Shown in pieces: positions 1,536 through 46,899 of a DNA stretch of 64,000 nt. Both the position numbers and the translations under genes were made by a program. The stretch is from Promethearchaeia archaeon (GTDB lineage: Archaea; Asgardarchaeota; Lokiarchaeia; Sigyniarchaeales; SOKP01): positions 1 through 64,000 of the forward strand of contig JAHQWJ010000107.1 of the NCBI GenBank assembly GCA_029856125.1, written 5' to 3'. The notes beneath the pieces were generated by a model. It had not been told where the DNA came from. It was given only the letters and a program-made list of their open reading frames with translations, and ran no database searches. Each line of letters starts with the position of its first letter. The stretch's first letter is position 1.

Positions 1536-2309
1536 TTAGGTTTCTTCTTCCTCGCTAGATTCCCTGCCTAACAAGCGCATAACAGAATCAGCAAGTTTAT
1601 TTTGGCTACGACTCATGATTCCCTTAATCTTCCCCTCTTTTCCAAGAACGCGTAGCATAATGCCATTCCATACGGAGGAAGGATTACCTTTAACTTTCAT
1701 GAATTTGTCTCTGTGTATTTCAACACTAATATTGTCGTAGTTTTTTGAAGCGTCAGAGCATTTAAAACATAATATACATTTATCTATGTCTACTGCTATG
1801 TCCTTACCTTCACGCGACATAGCGTCCACAGCACACTCCTTAGTAAAAGCGTCAATTACTTTGGTATCTTTCTCAGTACAATTAAATTTAATTGAACCGT
1901 GTACAACCTTGCGGACTTTATGACCGTTTTCTAAAGTGCGAACTTCTTCGTCAAACTCTGCAAGAGACCCATTTTCTACTAATAATATCTTATTTTCCCC
2001 ATTGATTAGCAATTCTAATGTATATCCTGGACAAATCCACGTACAACTGCCGCACCAAATACACTTTTCCGTATCTACGACAATCTTCTTGTCGGATTCG
2101 ATTCTCATTTCTTCTGGTGTTCCGATAGCTGTTCGTTTTAATGGTTCGTCGTAAATAGATATAGTTACAGGACAAACTCTATGACAAAATCCGCACTCAA
2201 CGCACTTACTTTCGTCATATTTAAGGATACTTTCATGCGAGAGCATTTTATAAACAAAATGAGTAATATTTTCATCAATCTCGATTGTTTTCTTAGCTGG
2301 TAACGACAT
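1536..2309 (-). CDS. Polyferredoxin / multi-[4Fe-4S] protein (FwdF/MvhB-like)
   Basis: CVECGFCHRVCP, CIWCGSCTWICP and a degenerate CILCFKC motif; last gene of the hdrA-mvhD-fdhB run. Confidence 0.75.
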   Translation of the reverse strand: MSLPAKKTIEIDENITHFVYKMLSHESILKYDESKCVECGFCHRVCPVTISIYDEPLKRTAIGTPEEMRIESDKKIVVDTEKCIWCGSCTWICPGYTLELLINGENKILLVENGSLAEFDEEVRTLENGHKVRKVVHGSIKFNCTEKDTKVIDAFTKECAVDAMSREGKDIAVDIDKCILCFKCSDASKNYDNISVEIHRDKFMKVKGNPSSVWNGIMLRVLGKEGKIKGIMSRSQNKLADSVMRLLGRESSEEEET

Positions 2310-2399: not shown

Positions 2400-3539
2400 T
2401 TACGTTTTTCCTAATTCCATTTGACTAATCGCTTTCCCAGACCTGAACGGTATATCGTCTAGACTCTCACCTGCGCTATAACCAAATTTTTCCTTAAAGG
2501 AATCGTTTAACGATTGGAAGTAAAGTGATAGTGGAAGATGTTGTGGGCAATTATTATCACAATTACCACATTCTATGCACCGGTCTGCGACATGAGCAAT
2601 CCTTGTTAATTGATAAGATTCCTTATTGATAATCTTTTCCTTCCGCTTTTTCATTAGAATGCAATCAACGCAGTAACACACAGGACATCCACGAATGCAC
2701 ATATTACACATTGTACATTTTTGGAACCTTTCCAATTTATCTTCCTGAGAAAGCTTGTCCCATTCTTCTAAATCCTTTGCTCTCTTTGCTAAAGCAGTAT
2801 CTTTGATTTTTCTAAGAGTTTCGGTGTGTTTTGTTCTCAAATCCTCAGGTAAGGTTTTTTTGTTGATCTTTGATTTTTCTACGAGATCTGCACCTTTATC
2901 TGAATATACTATTAGGAGAATTTCGTCTGAATCAATAGGTAATACCAGATCGCTAACACTGATATCAGCAACAACGGGGACTTTTCTGATACAACGCGTA
3001 CAATTCTCTGCTATATCTAATCCAACTTCTTTAGTGCTACCATCTTCAAATTTAAGAATTAATCCATTATCGCCGACTTTTTCTTTAACTACTTTAGTTA
3101 AATCGAGTCCTTCTACTTTCTTCAATTGACGCGAAACATTTATTACCATCCCTCTATCCTCAAAGCCAACAACGAAAAGATTATCCATGTTAATCTGTCT
3201 AATCTTTGCTAACTCAATTATTCCGCGAGTATCACAGGGACGAGCAATAACTCCGACTTTTTCGTTCTTAGCCCCATCAACTGATTTATGTAAGAATTTC
3301 GCAGCCGTATCCGTTCTAGCGTATCCATATGCAATTAAATTTGTTAAAGGAAAAGTTGTAAGGTCTTCTGGTTTTTCAACAATTACTGGAGATACAGTAA
3401 ATCTATCTATAGCCCCAGATTTCTTATCTACTTTCAATTTTGCTCCAATAATCTTATCTACGAATTTTTCTTGCAAGAGCGTCGCTAATAGCTTAGGAAA
3501 ATCTTCAATCTTAATTAAATATTCATCTAATGCATCCAT
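2400..3539 (-). CDS. fdhB: FdhB-like (F420-binding FrhB/FdhB family) flavo-iron-sulfur subunit
   Basis: RPCDTRGIIELAKIRQINMDN, CTRC, CTMCNMCIRGCPVCYCVDC, RCIECGNCDNNCP match the FdhB layout. Confidence 0.75.
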   Translation of the reverse strand: MDALDEYLIKIEDFPKLLATLLQEKFVDKIIGAKLKVDKKSGAIDRFTVSPVIVEKPEDLTTFPLTNLIAYGYARTDTAAKFLHKSVDGAKNEKVGVIARPCDTRGIIELAKIRQINMDNLFVVGFEDRGMVINVSRQLKKVEGLDLTKVVKEKVGDNGLILKFEDGSTKEVGLDIAENCTRCIRKVPVVADISVSDLVLPIDSDEILLIVYSDKGADLVEKSKINKKTLPEDLRTKHTETLRKIKDTALAKRAKDLEEWDKLSQEDKLERFQKCTMCNMCIRGCPVCYCVDCILMKKRKEKIINKESYQLTRIAHVADRCIECGNCDNNCPQHLPLSLYFQSLNDSFKEKFGYSAGESLDDIPFRSGKAISQMELGKT

Positions 3540-3638
3540 GTTATTTCAACTCAAATTAATAAAGACTTTTTTTCAATTTTTTTTTTAATTATTTTTTAAT
3601 TATTTTTTACATAACTATTACTTTTTAAATTTTTTTTT

Positions 3639-3712
3639 ATGTGTTATATGGTGCTCCCATATCTTCAGCTGAGTTCTCATTTTTTTTAACTCAGCCTCAT
3701 TAGCTAACACAT
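3639..3712 (-). promoter_or_regulatory. Eukaryote-like SECIS element 1 (3' of mvhD; likely serves hdrA and mvhD)
   Basis: Minus strand: AUGUGUU-AGCUA-AUGA-G-GCUGAGUU-[AAAAAAAAUGAG]-AACUCAGC-U-GA-AG-AUAUGG-GAGCA-CCAUAU-AACACAU; perfect 8-bp upper helix and 7-bp lower helix, starting immediately after the mvhD stop. Confidence 0.9.
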
Positions 3713-4147
3713 TTATTTTTTTGAGGAGTTATTATTTTTTTTCCGTAATGGGCTCGGTCCAAGTTTCCGTATTTCTTCATCAAAAGAAGTTGCTACTTTT
3801 CGATATTTCGAACCTTCCGCTGAACTGCAATATTCCATTTTTAATCTTTTTGGGTTAAGTCCAACGGCTTTAACCACTTCTTTTATATAAGCAATTGACC
3901 TATGTGCAAAATAGTTACCTTTTTCATAATCACATTCTCCAGGATATCATCCAACAACGAGTATTCCGTCAGCACCTCTCCCAAAACTTCTCATAATTAC
4001 ATCCGCACCAACTCTTCCTGTACATGGAACTAACACGGTTCTTAAAGATATGGGGTATTGAGCTCTAATAGTTCCCGCCATATCAGCTGCACCATAGCCT
4101 CATTTTAAACATAAAAAGGATAGAATTTTAATATCGTCGTCTCTCAT
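3713..4147 (-). CDS. mvhD: MvhD/VhuD [2Fe-2S] subunit, selenoprotein with 2 Sec (U16, U67), 144 aa; missing from ORF track
   Basis: MRDDDIKILSFLCLK-U-GYGAADMAGTIRAQYP...VPCTGRV...GADGILVVG-U-YPGECDYEKGN...SSAEG...LGPSPL; TGA at 4100-4102 and 3947-3949 occupy conserved MvhD Cys positions; TAA stop at 3713-3715. Confidence 0.93.
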
Positions 4148-4160
4148 TTTAATTTCCTCT

Positions 4161-6122
4161 TTAATCTTCTATTGGCAATAATTCGTCAATATAAACTGAA
4201 TATTGAACGTCTTTGTAATGCGCTAAATCTATTGCTTTAGAAGGGCATATTGCAGTGCAAATTCCACAACCTCTGCAACTTATTACATCTACAACAATCT
4301 TTCCTTCATCATTAATAGAAATTGCATTGTATGGACAAGCATCAATACATTTATAGCATTTTGCACATCTTTCGTCTATTGGTTGGGCGCGTATTAATTC
4401 AATAATGTATTCTCCCTGTCCCATTGGAATGCCTGCTGAAGATGCTGCTCCTTTAGCCTGGCTTACAGTAAGTTCAATAGACTTCTGACCTTGACAAGAA
4501 CCTGCTAAATAGATACCTGGAACCTTAGTTTTGATTGGTTCTAGACGCGGATGAACTTCTTTTAGAAACCCATCTGATGATTTTTCGATATTCATTATAG
4601 CAGCAATTTCATTTGTGCCTTGAGATGGTAGTGATGCCGATGACAAAACAACCATATGAACTTCCATTTTTACTAGCGTATCAGTCCCAACAGGTTCAAA
4701 TTGAACGATAAGATTCTTTGTTAAAGGGTCTTCTTCTATTTTTCCTATCATCCCTTTAACAAAAAGAATTCCTGCATCTCTGGCTCTTTTGTAATACTCT
4801 TCATACATCTTCCCCGCACATCTCATATCTATATAACATACTGTAATTTCGGAATCGGGATATTCAGAGATTATAAGTTTGGAATTCTTAACAGATAAAT
4901 TACAGCAAACTACGCTACAATATGCATTCTTTTTTATATCTCTTGATCCTACGCAGTTAATGAATAATATTTTCTTTGGACGTTTTCTATCTGAGGGGCG
5001 TACCAAATGACCGAACATAGGACCATTTGGAGCAAGGATTCTTTCTAGTTGGATTTGTGTGATTACATTCTCGTATTTCCCGTACCCATAATCGTCTTCT
5101 TGATATATGTCCCACCCTGTTGCCACAATTATTGTTCCTATTTCAAGTTCTACTATTTCATCTTGTTGGCTAAAGTCAATTGCTTCCAAATCACAAGACT
5201 CGACACATGCAAAACATTCTACACACGATTCCCTTACAATATCATAAACTGCCGGAACTGCTTGAGCAAATGAAATATCGATGCACTTACGAGCTGACAG
5301 ATTTTCATCAAAATAATTAGGAACATATATAGGACATACTTCCGTACATGCACCACAGCCAGTACATTCGCTTTCAATGACAAATCGAGCTTTTCTGTTT
5401 ACATGGGCTCTAAAGTTACCTATGTATCCTTCGACTTTTACTACTTCACTATAAGTAAGCATTTCAATATTTGGATGGCGATCAGCTTCAAGCATCTTAG
5501 GTCCGAGAATTCATATTGAACAATCATCCGTGGGGAATGTTCTATCTAACTGAGACATACGACCACCGACTGTTGTCTTCTTTTCAACTAAATAAACTTT
5601 ATATCCCGCATCTCCCAAATCAATTGCAGCACTTAAACCAGCAATCCCTCCACCAATAACCAAACAAGTAGGGTTTACATCTACTGTTTTTGTAGGTATC
5701 TCTTCTAAAAATTGCGACCTTGAAATCCCTGCTTTTACTAATTCTATTGCTTTAAGTGTAGCGTCATCTCTTACTTCCATTGCTTGATGAACGTAACTAC
5801 AATGTTCTCTAATGTTTACAAATTCCAAATATCTCTGTGGTAATCCTGCTTCTTTTAAAATAGCGTGAAATACTGGTTCATGTGTTATTGGAGTTCAAGC
5901 AGCCAAGATAATTCTGTCGAAGCCTTTTTCGTCTATTTGTTCTTTCATAAATTCAGCTCCTCCAGACGTACACAAATTTAAATACTCGTAAGCGTAAACA
6001 TCATCGAGTTTATCAATTTCTTCTACAATTTTAGGCACATCTAAAATGCCTCCAATATTAACTCCTCATCTACATATAAATGCTCCGATTTTGTGTTTAC
6101 TATTGGTCTGTTCTTCAGACAA
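4161..6122 (-). CDS. hdrA: Heterodisulfide reductase subunit A, selenoprotein with 3 Sec (U19, U76, U204), about 653 aa; joins ORFs 5511..5828 and 4161..5495 with an unannotated N-terminus
   Basis: One frame from TTG 6122 (or GTG 6131): KIGAFICR-U-GVNIGG..NLCTSGG..DRIILAA-U-TPITHEP..EFVNIREHCS..GGGIAG..TFPTDDCSI-U-ILGPKM..; TGA at 6066-6068, 5895-5897 and 5511-5513; also CVGSRD, YCSVVCC and ferredoxin motifs. Confidence 0.93.
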
Positions 6123-6378
6123 ATTTTCCACCTTTTGTATTTGTATCCTCCTAATTTTAAATGTATCTTCTTATAACGATTTTTATTAATTGTACTTGAT
6201 TAAATAAATATGATCATGCAAATGGTTCTTATTATTAAAATTCAATTATTATTAGTTTTATACCGATTATTTTTGATTTTAAGACTTTCATCATTGCTGT
6301 TATAGTTGAAAATAACCAAATCAGATTTAAATAAAATAAACATAATATAGATCATATCTTTTTAGTAGGTGAATATTC

Positions 6379-7191
6379 ATGGCAGAATCTCAAAAATCTA
6401 ATAAAAAATCAAAATACACAATTGATTCGATTCAAAGGAAAGCGTTAATTAGTAGAATATATCCTATCCTCTTGGTGGGGTCAATAGTTTGGTTGTCGGG
6501 AGAATATTTGTTTAGCTTTCTTTTCTCAGATTTGGATTTTACAGGACAAAATTTATTGTACTATGTAATCATTGTAATAGTAGAAGCGATTTTATTTATC
6601 TCGTTTTTCTTTGCCTCTAATAATAATAAAATATTATTGAGTATCTTCTTCTTTATAGCATTCAGTTTTCTTGCAGGAATTTTAAGTTTACCCGTAGTGA
6701 TCTTTACAGAATTTATACCACAAGTTCACATGCTTGTCAGTTTGTCAGTTGGTGCAAATTTTATAGTTTACTTCTTAAGTCTCTTTTTAAGGGAAAAGTA
6801 CTTTGCCAAAGGATATATTTGGACGCATATCTTATTATACCTAATTGGAGTTGCCATAGTAGAAATCATTTTTATTGTTATTTTCAATATCCAAAACTTA
6901 TTACTAACAATACCTATCTCACTGGCATACATTTTGATTGTTTCCTTAATTTTGATGTTTTGGGGCACCCGTACCATTAAAAAAACTGAAAAAGAGAATT
7001 GGATATATGCATTATTTAAAATTCTTGGAATTTTACTAATAGCGCTTGTCTTAGCTGTCGTTGTTGTAGTTATTGTACTTTTAATTATTGCACTAGCAAT
7101 TATATCTGAAGGAAATTTTGATTTGAGCGGGATAGGTTCTGGAGGGGGTGGAGGAATTGGAAGTAAAAAGAAGAAGCAACAGCAAATCTAA
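6379..7191 (+). CDS. Polytopic membrane protein, possibly Bax inhibitor-1/YccA-like fold
   Basis: About 7 hydrophobic segments; Gly-rich and Lys-rich C-terminus; GGTGA RBS upstream. Family call is tentative. Confidence 0.45.
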   Translation: MAESQKSNKKSKYTIDSIQRKALISRIYPILLVGSIVWLSGEYLFSFLFSDLDFTGQNLLYYVIIVIVEAILFISFFFASNNNKILLSIFFFIAFSFLAGILSLPVVIFTEFIPQVHMLVSLSVGANFIVYFLSLFLREKYFAKGYIWTHILLYLIGVAIVEIIFIVIFNIQNLLLTIPISLAYILIVSLILMFWGTRTIKKTEKENWIYALFKILGILLIALVLAVVVVVIVLLIIALAIISEGNFDLSGIGSGGGGGIGSKKKKQQQI

Positions 7192-35043: not shown

Positions 35044-35110
35044 CCCATAAGAATGAATCGTGAGTGAAAATTTTAGACTCCCGACGACGAACCTAGCAAG
35101 GTTTCATGGG
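35044..35110 (+). promoter_or_regulatory. Eukaryote-like SECIS element 2
   Basis: CCCAU-AAGA-AUGA-A-UCGUGAGU-[GAAAAUUUUAG]-ACUCCCGA-C-GA-CG-AACCU-AGCA-AGGUU-UC-AUGGG; 7 of 8 bp in upper helix; starts 3 nt after the stop and is followed by a U-tract. Confidence 0.88.
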
Positions 35111-35145
35111 TTTTTATTTTTTAGAAAAAAAAAGATAAGAAGTAA

Positions 35146-43903: not shown

Positions 43904-44140
43904 ATACTTAGAGAGTAAACATTATTTCATGTATAAGTTAATAAAAATGTTAAGGAATACATAGGACACAATCCTATCGTTCATCTTCCACTATCATTTT
44001 CTGAAAGATTTCAATCTTCTTCAAGATTTATTCCTATTAGGTTTAAAATAATGAGAAAAAGTTTCATTTTCCTTTCCGTATTTTGTTAAAATTATCCTCT
44101 TAAATGTTCCTATATCCAATCGATTTTTCACTTTTTCTCA

Positions 44141-44501
44141 TCAACATCCAACATCTTGTTGTAATTCAATAATAGTATCCGGATATAAATTGAATTTGAT
44201 ATCTTCTCTTATTGGATTAAATTTTCTGTAAAGACCTTGATCATCAGGAGCATAAGGAGATAACCCGACATCGTCGTAAATTGTTTCGTCATCCAAATTT
44301 ACAAATAGTTGCAGATAGTTGTGGATATATCCTTCATGAATAGGAAAAATTTTATTCTCTAAACTTTCACTTTCCATTTTGTCAACCAACGCTAATGTTT
44401 CAATAAAATTTGCTTCATCCTTAATCTCAAGATCGTAGTCCTTTCCACTTTGCAAGCCTTTTATCGGAATTGATATTTTAAATTTTAGCTTTTTGACTCA
44501 T
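44141..44501 (-). CDS. Putative ubiquitin-like/MoaD-fold protein ending in Gly-Cys; apparent 1-nt frameshift near the start
   Basis: ATG at 44499-44501 is out of frame by one base in an A5 run (44490-44494). Removing one A gives MSQKLKFKISIPIKGLQSGKDYDLEIKDEANFIETLALVD..NYLQLFVN..LYPDTIIELQQDVGC. Confidence 0.5.
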
Positions 44502-46824: not shown

Positions 46825-46884
46825 TTGATAACCCGTGCAAGGTAGTCCTCAAGCGTCTAGAATTTATACACTTGAATCATTCAA
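46825..46884 (-). promoter_or_regulatory. Eukaryote-like SECIS element 3
   Basis: Minus strand: UUGA-AUGA-U-UCAAGUGU-[AUAAAUUCUAG]-ACGCUUGA-G-GA-CU-ACCU-UGCAC-GGGU-UA-UCAA; 8 of 8 bp in upper helix including one G-U. Confidence 0.87.
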
Positions 46885-46899
46885 TTTTTATTTTTGGAA

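Follow-up and report, generated by a model that had tools for sequence, protein, structure and literature searches.

Two earlier studies describe the systems closest to the one considered here. Mariotti et al. 2016 (PMC4989117) reported that HdrA and VhuD of Lokiarchaeota share a single lokiSECIS, a selenocysteine insertion sequence (SECIS) downstream of VhuD, deduced a polycistronic mRNA, and noted that the stop codon of HdrA is invariably UAA or UAG. Huang et al. 2024 (PMC11227280) found hdrA-frhD pairs with one shared eSECIS-like structure in hundreds of Asgard genomes, and in both studies hdrA and vhuD are always paired. We analyzed an hdrA-vhuD pair in a 64,000-nucleotide (nt) stretch of DNA (hereafter, the window) from Promethearchaeia archaeon, which comprises positions 1-64,000 of contig JAHQWJ010000107.1 in the 153-contig assembly GCA_029856125.1 (genome label G000). 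A preliminary description of this DNA had proposed that one SECIS serves both cistrons across a true TAA stop, and no other reading of the sequence and of ~45 related loci is as well supported. We consider it probable that the single SECIS after vhuD serves hdrA and vhuD on one polycistronic mRNA and that it reaches past the hdrA TAA stop. The idea of a shared SECIS is a correct rediscovery, having been known since 2016.

The window resembles the published HdrA-VhuD pairs in gene order, shared strand, very short gap, a reach of ~2 kb, and the deduction of a polycistronic mRNA. It also resembles them in having an HdrA with several selenocysteines (Sec), including the canonical position, a VhuD with two, an hdrA stop that is never UGA, and a single element (AUGA, 9-bp stem, A-rich loop, GA) located after vhuD only. 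It differs in the sequence of this element, whose loop reads A7-8 and then [U/C]GAG with a 3' GAAGA, compared to AAAAAUnAUAG and GAC. It also differs in what comes after the SECIS, namely a conserved co-directional frhB-like gene and no U-tract, a point not found in the text of PMC4989117 or PMC11227280.

On the minus strand, hdrA and vhuD/mvhD are followed by an frhB/fdhB-like gene and a polyferredoxin-like gene, which makes a run of four. The features of the first two genes and of the SECIS are as follows.

4161-6122, minus strand: hdrA (heterodisulfide reductase subunit A-like flavoprotein), ~653 amino acids from TTG 6122, alternative GTG 6131, stop TAA 4163-4161
6066-6068, minus strand: hdrA UGA 1 (U22 counted from GTG), 2,368 nt upstream of the SECIS AUGA, cysteine (Cys) in the alignment with PDB chain 9sfi_A
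5895-5897, minus strand: hdrA UGA 2 (U79), Cys in the 9sfi_A alignment
5511-5513, minus strand: hdrA UGA 3 (U207), the canonical HdrA Sec position, opposite the X of 9sfi_A in the motif DDC-x-X-IL-PK
4148-4160, minus strand: 13-nt intercistronic spacer between hdrA and vhuD, with an AGAGG Shine-Dalgarno-like (ribosome-binding) motif
3713-4147, minus strand: vhuD/mvhD (FlpD family), 144 amino acids, stop TAA 3715-3713
4100-4102, minus strand: vhuD UGA 1 (U16), Cys in the MvhD/VhuD structure alignment; orthologs likewise have two TGA
3947-3949, minus strand: vhuD UGA 2 (U67), 249 nt upstream of the SECIS AUGA, Cys in the structure alignment
3639-3712, minus strand: SECIS (lokiSECIS / Asgard type I eSECIS-like), starting directly after the vhuD TAA

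When TGA is read as Sec (U), the hdrA frame at 4161-6131 of the minus strand is a single open frame containing three TGA codons. Its product has Fer4 and FAD/pyridine-nucleotide oxidoreductase domains in Pfam and matches HdrA (PDB chain 9sfi_A) with E = 3.5e-202. Translation most likely starts at TTG 6122 rather than at GTG 6131, because the GTG, nine bases before 6122, runs straight into TAA in several orthologs, whereas the [T/A/G]TG-TCT-GAA at 6122 is conserved. A TTG or ATG is kept at this position, with AAGGTG before it, and the ortholog comparison agrees in this with the preliminary description, which had assumed a start at 6122. The second gene was identified as vhuD by Pfam (PF02662, E = 6.5e-42) and by PDB MvhD/VhuD chains (E = 9e-36). 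All the coordinates previously given for the three TGA of hdrA, the two of mvhD, and the 13-nt gap at 4148-4160 hold.

Each of the five TGA codons stands opposite a Cys, or an X taken to be Sec, in solved HdrA/MvhD structures; the X is the residue of chain 9sfi_A opposite hdrA UGA 3. UGA 3 occupies the canonical Sec site known from methanogen HdrA (PMC4989117), and all 20 orthologous loci have TGA there. UGA 1 is TGA in 19/19 orthologous loci whose alignment reaches that residue. At UGA 2, TGA is limited to the closest orthologs (L043-L050), with TGC or TGT elsewhere. The five UGA codons of hdrA and vhuD are very probably read as Sec.

The AUGA/GA hairpin lies directly after the mvhD stop, as had been described, and the distance from the first hdrA TGA, previously estimated at about 2.4 kb, corresponds to the 2,368 nt listed above. 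Helix I (3712-3705 with 3646-3639) begins 1 nt past the vhuD TAA. Helix II is a perfect 9-bp stem (3696-3688 with 3675-3667), with AUGA (3700-3697) immediately 5' and GA (3666-3665) immediately 3' of it. The apical loop (3687-3676) is A-rich, comprises 12 nt and opens with eight A, and a side hairpin is located at ~3662-3646. The minimum free energy of the fold is -22.2 kcal/mol (z = -5.7), and none of 200 shuffles equaled it.

We compared this element with a set of 30 orthologous loci from 28 related genomes; the SECIS alignment comprises 21 loci. The same SECIS lies 15-24 nt after the vhuD stop in 30/30 loci, the distance from the first base of the vhuD stop to AUGA being 15 nt in the window and 15-24 nt in the orthologs. 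Within the alignment, AUGA and GA are invariant in all 21 elements, and compensatory changes occur in 8 of the 9 pairs of helix II. In this helix 92.5% of cells are paired, a value also given as 93.7% across orthologs; sliding the 3' partners lowers it to 31-47%, and none of the shuffles attains the observed covariation. The apical loop comprises 11 nt in 19/20 orthologs versus 12 nt in the window. The eight A of the window, where all orthologs but one have seven or fewer, represent a one-base homopolymer difference that may be real or an assembly indel. By its sequence and predicted fold, the element is a conserved structured RNA carrying every defining feature of the published lokiSECIS.

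Two covariance models were used in searches. R1 was built from ten further SECIS-like elements of this genome, which a pattern search had located behind genes that contain TGA, and R2 from the orthologous SECIS elements. R2 gave 100.4 bits at 3634-3714. R1, which was built without the vhuD-linked element, places its top match within the hdrA-vhuD locus at the SECIS site, and it recovers the SECIS of the two peroxiredoxin-like genes of the window at 50-52 bits. The vhuD-linked element belongs to a flavor with the loop A7-8-[U/C]GAG and the 3' flank GAAGA, while the others in the genome have AAAAAUnAUAG and GAC. Two flavors of lokiSECIS are thus present within one genome (3657-3705 versus 35048-35095 and 46838-46885). 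A model of one flavor scores the other at 13-19 bits, and therefore SECIS searches with a single model could miss selenoprotein genes.

More distant systems share some of these properties. In Methanococcales and Methanopyrus, VhuD and HdrA have SECIS of the GAA_A type in the 3' untranslated region (UTR). There, too, the two selenoproteins come in this order and a 3' element acts from a distance; the one at vhuD has an AUGA motif and serves two UGA that are 50 codons apart (PMC4989117). However, the neighboring hdrA had its own SECIS, which degenerated in Lokiarchaeota (PMC4989117), and the methanogen elements have a GAA_A bulge with G-C pairs, with neither the kink-turn AUGA/GA core nor the A-rich loop. 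Bacterial SECIS, the SelB-binding hairpins located 3' of each UGA within the open reading frame (ORF), likewise convert UGA to Sec in polycistronic prokaryotic mRNAs. Unlike the element considered here, they are local, with one hairpin per UGA, whereas none of the five UGA of hdrA and vhuD has a stable hairpin behind it.

Eukaryotic SECIS elements (RF00031 SECIS_1), such as those of SELENOP, share with the window element the AUGA...GA kink-turn core, the unpaired adenines of the apical loop, and a location downstream of the ORF from which several UGA codons are served at a distance. The similarity is limited, in that RF00031 gives no match to the window element even at E = 10, and by that test the element is not a member of the family. 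Eukaryotic mRNAs are monocistronic, SELENOP has two SECIS elements, and SBP2 is required in eukaryotes. To our knowledge, no SBP2 homologue is known in archaea.

The evidence that the SECIS after vhuD also serves hdrA came from comparing the Sec-hdrA loci of this genome and its relatives. Within the genome, 4 of the 4 hdrA-vhuD pairs bearing TGA have a SECIS 0-21 nt after vhuD, while none of the 12 vhuD copies without a Sec/Cys-aligned TGA carries one. The fifth Sec-hdrA (C129:11490-13610; L008, L063) is a solo gene with two TGA; there is no vhuD within 1.5 kb, and the next gene is convergent. In this case a lokiSECIS with the AUGA...AA core is located 15 nt after the stop of hdrA itself. The solo arrangement is kept in nine genomes (orthologs L064-L071), with the SECIS ~15-20 nt past the hdrA stop. 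In a sister subfamily, ~72% identical, vhuD is present and the homologous SECIS is found after vhuD only. The elements of the two subfamilies have the same AUGA...AA core and the same helix I, and each of the 19 loci gave exactly one match. In both subfamilies the SECIS stands just behind whichever Sec-containing cistron comes last, as expected if hdrA needs the SECIS in cis.

The stop codons were also compared. No TGA is used by any of the 43 distinct Sec-hdrA genes (21 + 5 + 19 genes read, minus two loci counted twice; these genes are related, not independent), compared to 12.6% TGA stops genome-wide. In contrast, the vhuD stop is TGA in 4/30 orthologs. This tolerance is in accord with the minimal-distance rule of PMC4989117, the vhuD stop being near the SECIS.

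Sliding identity provided a further line of evidence. From ~6200 to 3620, the hdrA-vhuD-SECIS block is 93-97% identical to those of four genomes (G026, G028, G020, and G016), whereas the sequence outside it is 60-80% identical or cannot be aligned. The drop is sharp on each side; one edge lies ~70 nt before hdrA and the other in the spacer that immediately follows the SECIS. Three other genomes (G007, G031, and G010) show the opposite pattern, with 57-78% identity in the cassette and 92-98% in the frhB-like gene. The loci compared were L014, L019, L036, L038, L039, L044-L047, and L062. Judging from these identities, hdrA, vhuD, and the SECIS are inherited or exchanged as one recombination cassette. 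We also noted the mosaic ancestry of the adjoining DNA, since the frhB-like gene (2400-3620 side) is 75-80% identical to those of the four genomes that share the block.

Taking these comparisons together, we infer that hdrA and vhuD are co-transcribed, that Sec is inserted at their UGA codons, and that the SECIS acts by looping. In such a mechanism, hdrA and vhuD would be translated from a single mRNA with the SECIS just past the vhuD stop. The folded SECIS would recruit the Sec-specific elongation factor and Sec-tRNA(Sec), either directly or through an adaptor, and would hand this complex through space to any ribosome pausing at a UGA on the same RNA molecule. Its reach would include the three UGA of hdrA, up to 2.4 kb away, and the two of vhuD. 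Because the signal would not act by scanning, neither the hdrA TAA nor the 13-nt gap would form a barrier. A UGA too near the SECIS, such as some vhuD stop codons, would be read as a stop.

One alternative is that hdrA and vhuD are on separate transcripts, or that the SECIS acts in trans from other RNA molecules. At least a dozen SECIS elements are present in the genome, and the sequence is compatible with an internal promoter in the 3' end of hdrA. However, the 13-nt gap with its ribosome-binding motif, kept in the 30 orthologs as a gap of ~11-17 nt with GAGG(T), is typical of coupled cistrons. Moreover, the SECIS adjoins hdrA where vhuD is absent, which would be needless if action in trans sufficed, and the hdrA-vhuD-SECIS block is inherited as a unit. 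Eukaryotic SECIS elements perform very poorly in trans. We regard this explanation as quite unlikely.

Alternatively, hdrA could carry a different recoding signal of its own, located within the hdrA coding sequence, the 5' leader, or the beginning of vhuD, so that the element after vhuD serves vhuD alone. Such a signal might be a type II or SPS-like SECIS, or a bacterial-style hairpin beside each UGA. Divergent forms do exist, since the SPS lokiSECIS escaped the first model of Mariotti et al. (PMC4989117). We weighed this possibility against scans with R1 and R2, run with filters off on both strands of the window, of 20 orthologous loci, and of the 4 other Sec-hdrA loci of the genome. The 20 loci span the full hdrA and ~600 nt upstream where the contig permits; three end early (L059 inside hdrA, L049 ~100 nt upstream of it, and L043 ~450 nt upstream).

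Neither model gave a second credible SECIS match on either strand of 3300-6700, and beyond the SECIS itself R2 found nothing above ~11 bits in that region. Each of the 20 orthologous and 4 paralogous loci has one credible match, always behind the last Sec gene, and across the 24 loci no match within hdrA or ahead of it is seen again at a homologous position. For this reason we dismissed the R1 matches at 5666-5709 (11.3 bits, E = 2.3) and within the hdrA of contig C124 (16.5 bits). As for the covariance scan around hdrA-mvhD that the preliminary description had called for, it revealed no second SECIS in or upstream of hdrA; none of the findings which that description had listed as contradicting a shared SECIS, insofar as sequence can reveal them, was encountered. 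One of its counts was corrected, since it had placed three SECIS in the window, and the R1 scan gives four SECIS-like elements.

The 76-nt stretches from 7 nt before each of the five UGA to ~66 nt past it fold like shuffles (z from -1.4 to +0.9). The same is true of the hdrA 5' region (250 nt upstream; z = +0.1 and +0.8), in which there was no SECIS-like structure and no model match. Bacterial-type hairpins after each UGA and a SECIS in the 5' leader were accordingly dismissed, their folding being no better than that of shuffles. A loose pattern scan does give AUGA-stem-GA arrangements in hdrA, but such scans of this AT-rich DNA yield many chance matches, and the sole survivor was the element at 3700. 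An example is the candidate at 5881, located 16 nt after UGA 2, which has AUGA, a 10-bp stem with one mismatch, a 31-nt loop, and GA. Its folding z is +0.1, its pairing decays to 6-7/10 without compensation in L049 and L050 even though UGA 2 is kept there, and its AUGA is a His-Glu codon pair that follows the clade. We consider it a chance match. In addition, RNAz in PMC4989117 gave no other conserved structure, and the lokiSECIS kept directly behind solo Sec-hdrA indicates that hdrA depends on this type of element. A separate signal for hdrA is, in our view, very unlikely.

The remaining alternative, that the hdrA UGAs do not encode Sec, with hdrA being either a decaying pseudogene that yields truncated peptides or a gene whose UGA is read as Cys or Trp, is extremely unlikely: gene callers do break hdrA into fragments, and the many Cys-type hdrA paralogs of the genome could cover its function, but the 97% of the protein that follows UGA 1 is open, 72-96% identical, and free of other stops in 19 full-length or nearly full-length loci from 19 genomes, the UGAs lie exactly at Cys/Sec positions, including the canonical one of methanogen HdrA at UGA 3, and SECIS elements are found solely behind the TGA-containing pairs.

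Several observations weigh against a single SECIS serving both genes. The element scores just 13.4 bits (E = 0.69) with R1, yet at the correct site; we attribute this low score to the difference in sequence flavor, since the architecture does not differ. No Rfam SECIS family matched at the gathering threshold in the window or at E <= 10 in 3300-6500, where the lone Rfam match, to a snoRNA (22.7 bits, E = 3.2), was rejected as due to chance. Because of the low R1 score and the lack of an Rfam match, the identity of the element as a SECIS rests on architecture, position, and covariation. A SECIS of another type than those modeled would escape both R1 and R2. The Sec machinery was recovered in part: in favor of a shared SECIS, SepSecS is encoded in the genome (contig C101, 450.9 bits, above the curated cut-off), and there is a PSTK-like gene (contig C136, 168.6 bits, below the curated cut-off). 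Searches with Rfam RF01852 (matches of ~30 bits, below the cut-off) and ARAGORN gave no tRNA-Sec in this 153-contig assembly, in which a missing call is no evidence of absence, and EFSec was not singled out in the genome with a bacterial SelB model. A literature search for Asgard transcript maps found none that was usable. Finally, a lokiarchaeal SECIS was non-functional in Methanococcus maripaludis (Peiter et al. 2025, PMC11881835).

The sequences on either side of the pair contain the following features.

3540-3638, minus strand: A-rich spacer between the SECIS and the frhB-like gene; longest T run 3, no U-tract; the recombination breakpoint lies inside it
2400-3539, minus strand: FrhB/FdhB-like iron-sulfur protein (PF04432 and Fer4) with no in-frame TGA, starting 173 nt past the vhuD stop
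1536-2309, minus strand: polyferredoxin-like protein, the next gene of the run
6123-6250, minus strand: hdrA upstream region with conserved AAGGTG and ATTAGGAGGATA motifs and, ~100 nt upstream, a conserved AATTGAAYTTTAATAA box, a possible promoter

The hairpin had been placed inside the gene run ahead of fdhB, and indeed the frhB/fdhB-like gene follows it on the same strand. An FrhB-family gene is next on the same strand in 29/30 orthologs, 157-244 nt after the vhuD stop, and a second group of hdrA-vhuD paralogs also has an frhB-family gene, ~60 nt after the SECIS. U-tracts are a known archaeal termination signal (PMC8716108). Within a few bases of a SECIS that ends a gene run, we found a tract of T5-T6 in 4/9 solo hdrA loci and at 5/9 other elements, compared to 2/17 in the ortholog group of the window and 0/10 in the other frhB-linked group. 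The sites with such tracts resemble archaeal terminators (window 35096-35130 and 43940-43971; L005, L006, L012, L063-L065, and L068). The frhB-like gene downstream and the lack of a U-tract hint, but do no more than hint, at an intercistronic SECIS. We tentatively suggest, as a possibility somewhat short of even, that the SECIS is not a 3'-UTR element but lies between cistrons of a longer operon, hdrA-vhuD-[SECIS]-frhB-like-polyferredoxin, from where it would decode the five upstream UGA, with the cistrons beyond it being expressed from that RNA as well. A promoter within the A-rich spacer at 3540-3638 is equally possible.

At the start of the frhB-like gene, a reading from TTG 3554 through a TGA was rejected as an artefact; ATG 3539 is the start, and the GAGTTGG motif at this place is non-coding. 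Almost all orthologs keep a GAGTTGG(A) motif 5-7 nt before the start codon, and the window reads GAGTTGA at 3545-3553. It differs from the GAGG(T) motifs that precede hdrA and vhuD.

The fourth SECIS-like element of the window, at 43972-44019 of the minus strand, scored 26 bits with R1 and has UUGA in place of AUGA. Ahead of it lies an ORF (~44024-44497) with a tandem TGA-TGA in a conserved D-V-G-C-U-U-E-K motif. Proteins of this C-U-U family comprise ~120-160 amino acids, and conserved coding continues past the TGA-TGA (EKVKNRLDIG.FK...KYGK.NE.FAHYF). The member in the window ends in TGA rather than TAA, and the protein has no match in Pfam. Homologues are present in 21/40 related genomes (22/41 when its own genome is counted; 32 matches), all with two TGA, and in every one of the related genomes a SECIS follows the stop (loci L086-L093). 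A paralog in the same genome is located ahead of a SECIS on contig C122 (C122:12091-12402, L011). Database entries for the family are either truncated 'hypothetical proteins' or called with TGA as W, and there was no Cys form among the 83 database matches. The family is absent from the seven that Huang et al. 2024 (PMC11227280) list for Asgard selenoproteins. The C-U-U proteins are a candidate for an unlisted and unannotated selenoprotein family.

For the hdrA-vhuD pair, our results go slightly beyond the published texts in three points: a solo Sec-hdrA with its own SECIS, cassette-like inheritance, and a SECIS located inside a conserved gene run. Outside Asgard archaea there is no known parallel to a single signal that would recode five or six stop codons, spanning more than 2 kb and the boundary between two cistrons. 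The arrangement bears on the origin of the eukaryotic 3'-UTR SECIS from a prokaryotic, operon-based setting, as argued already in 2016, and the window offers a clean, well-conserved example of it with fresh comparative support.

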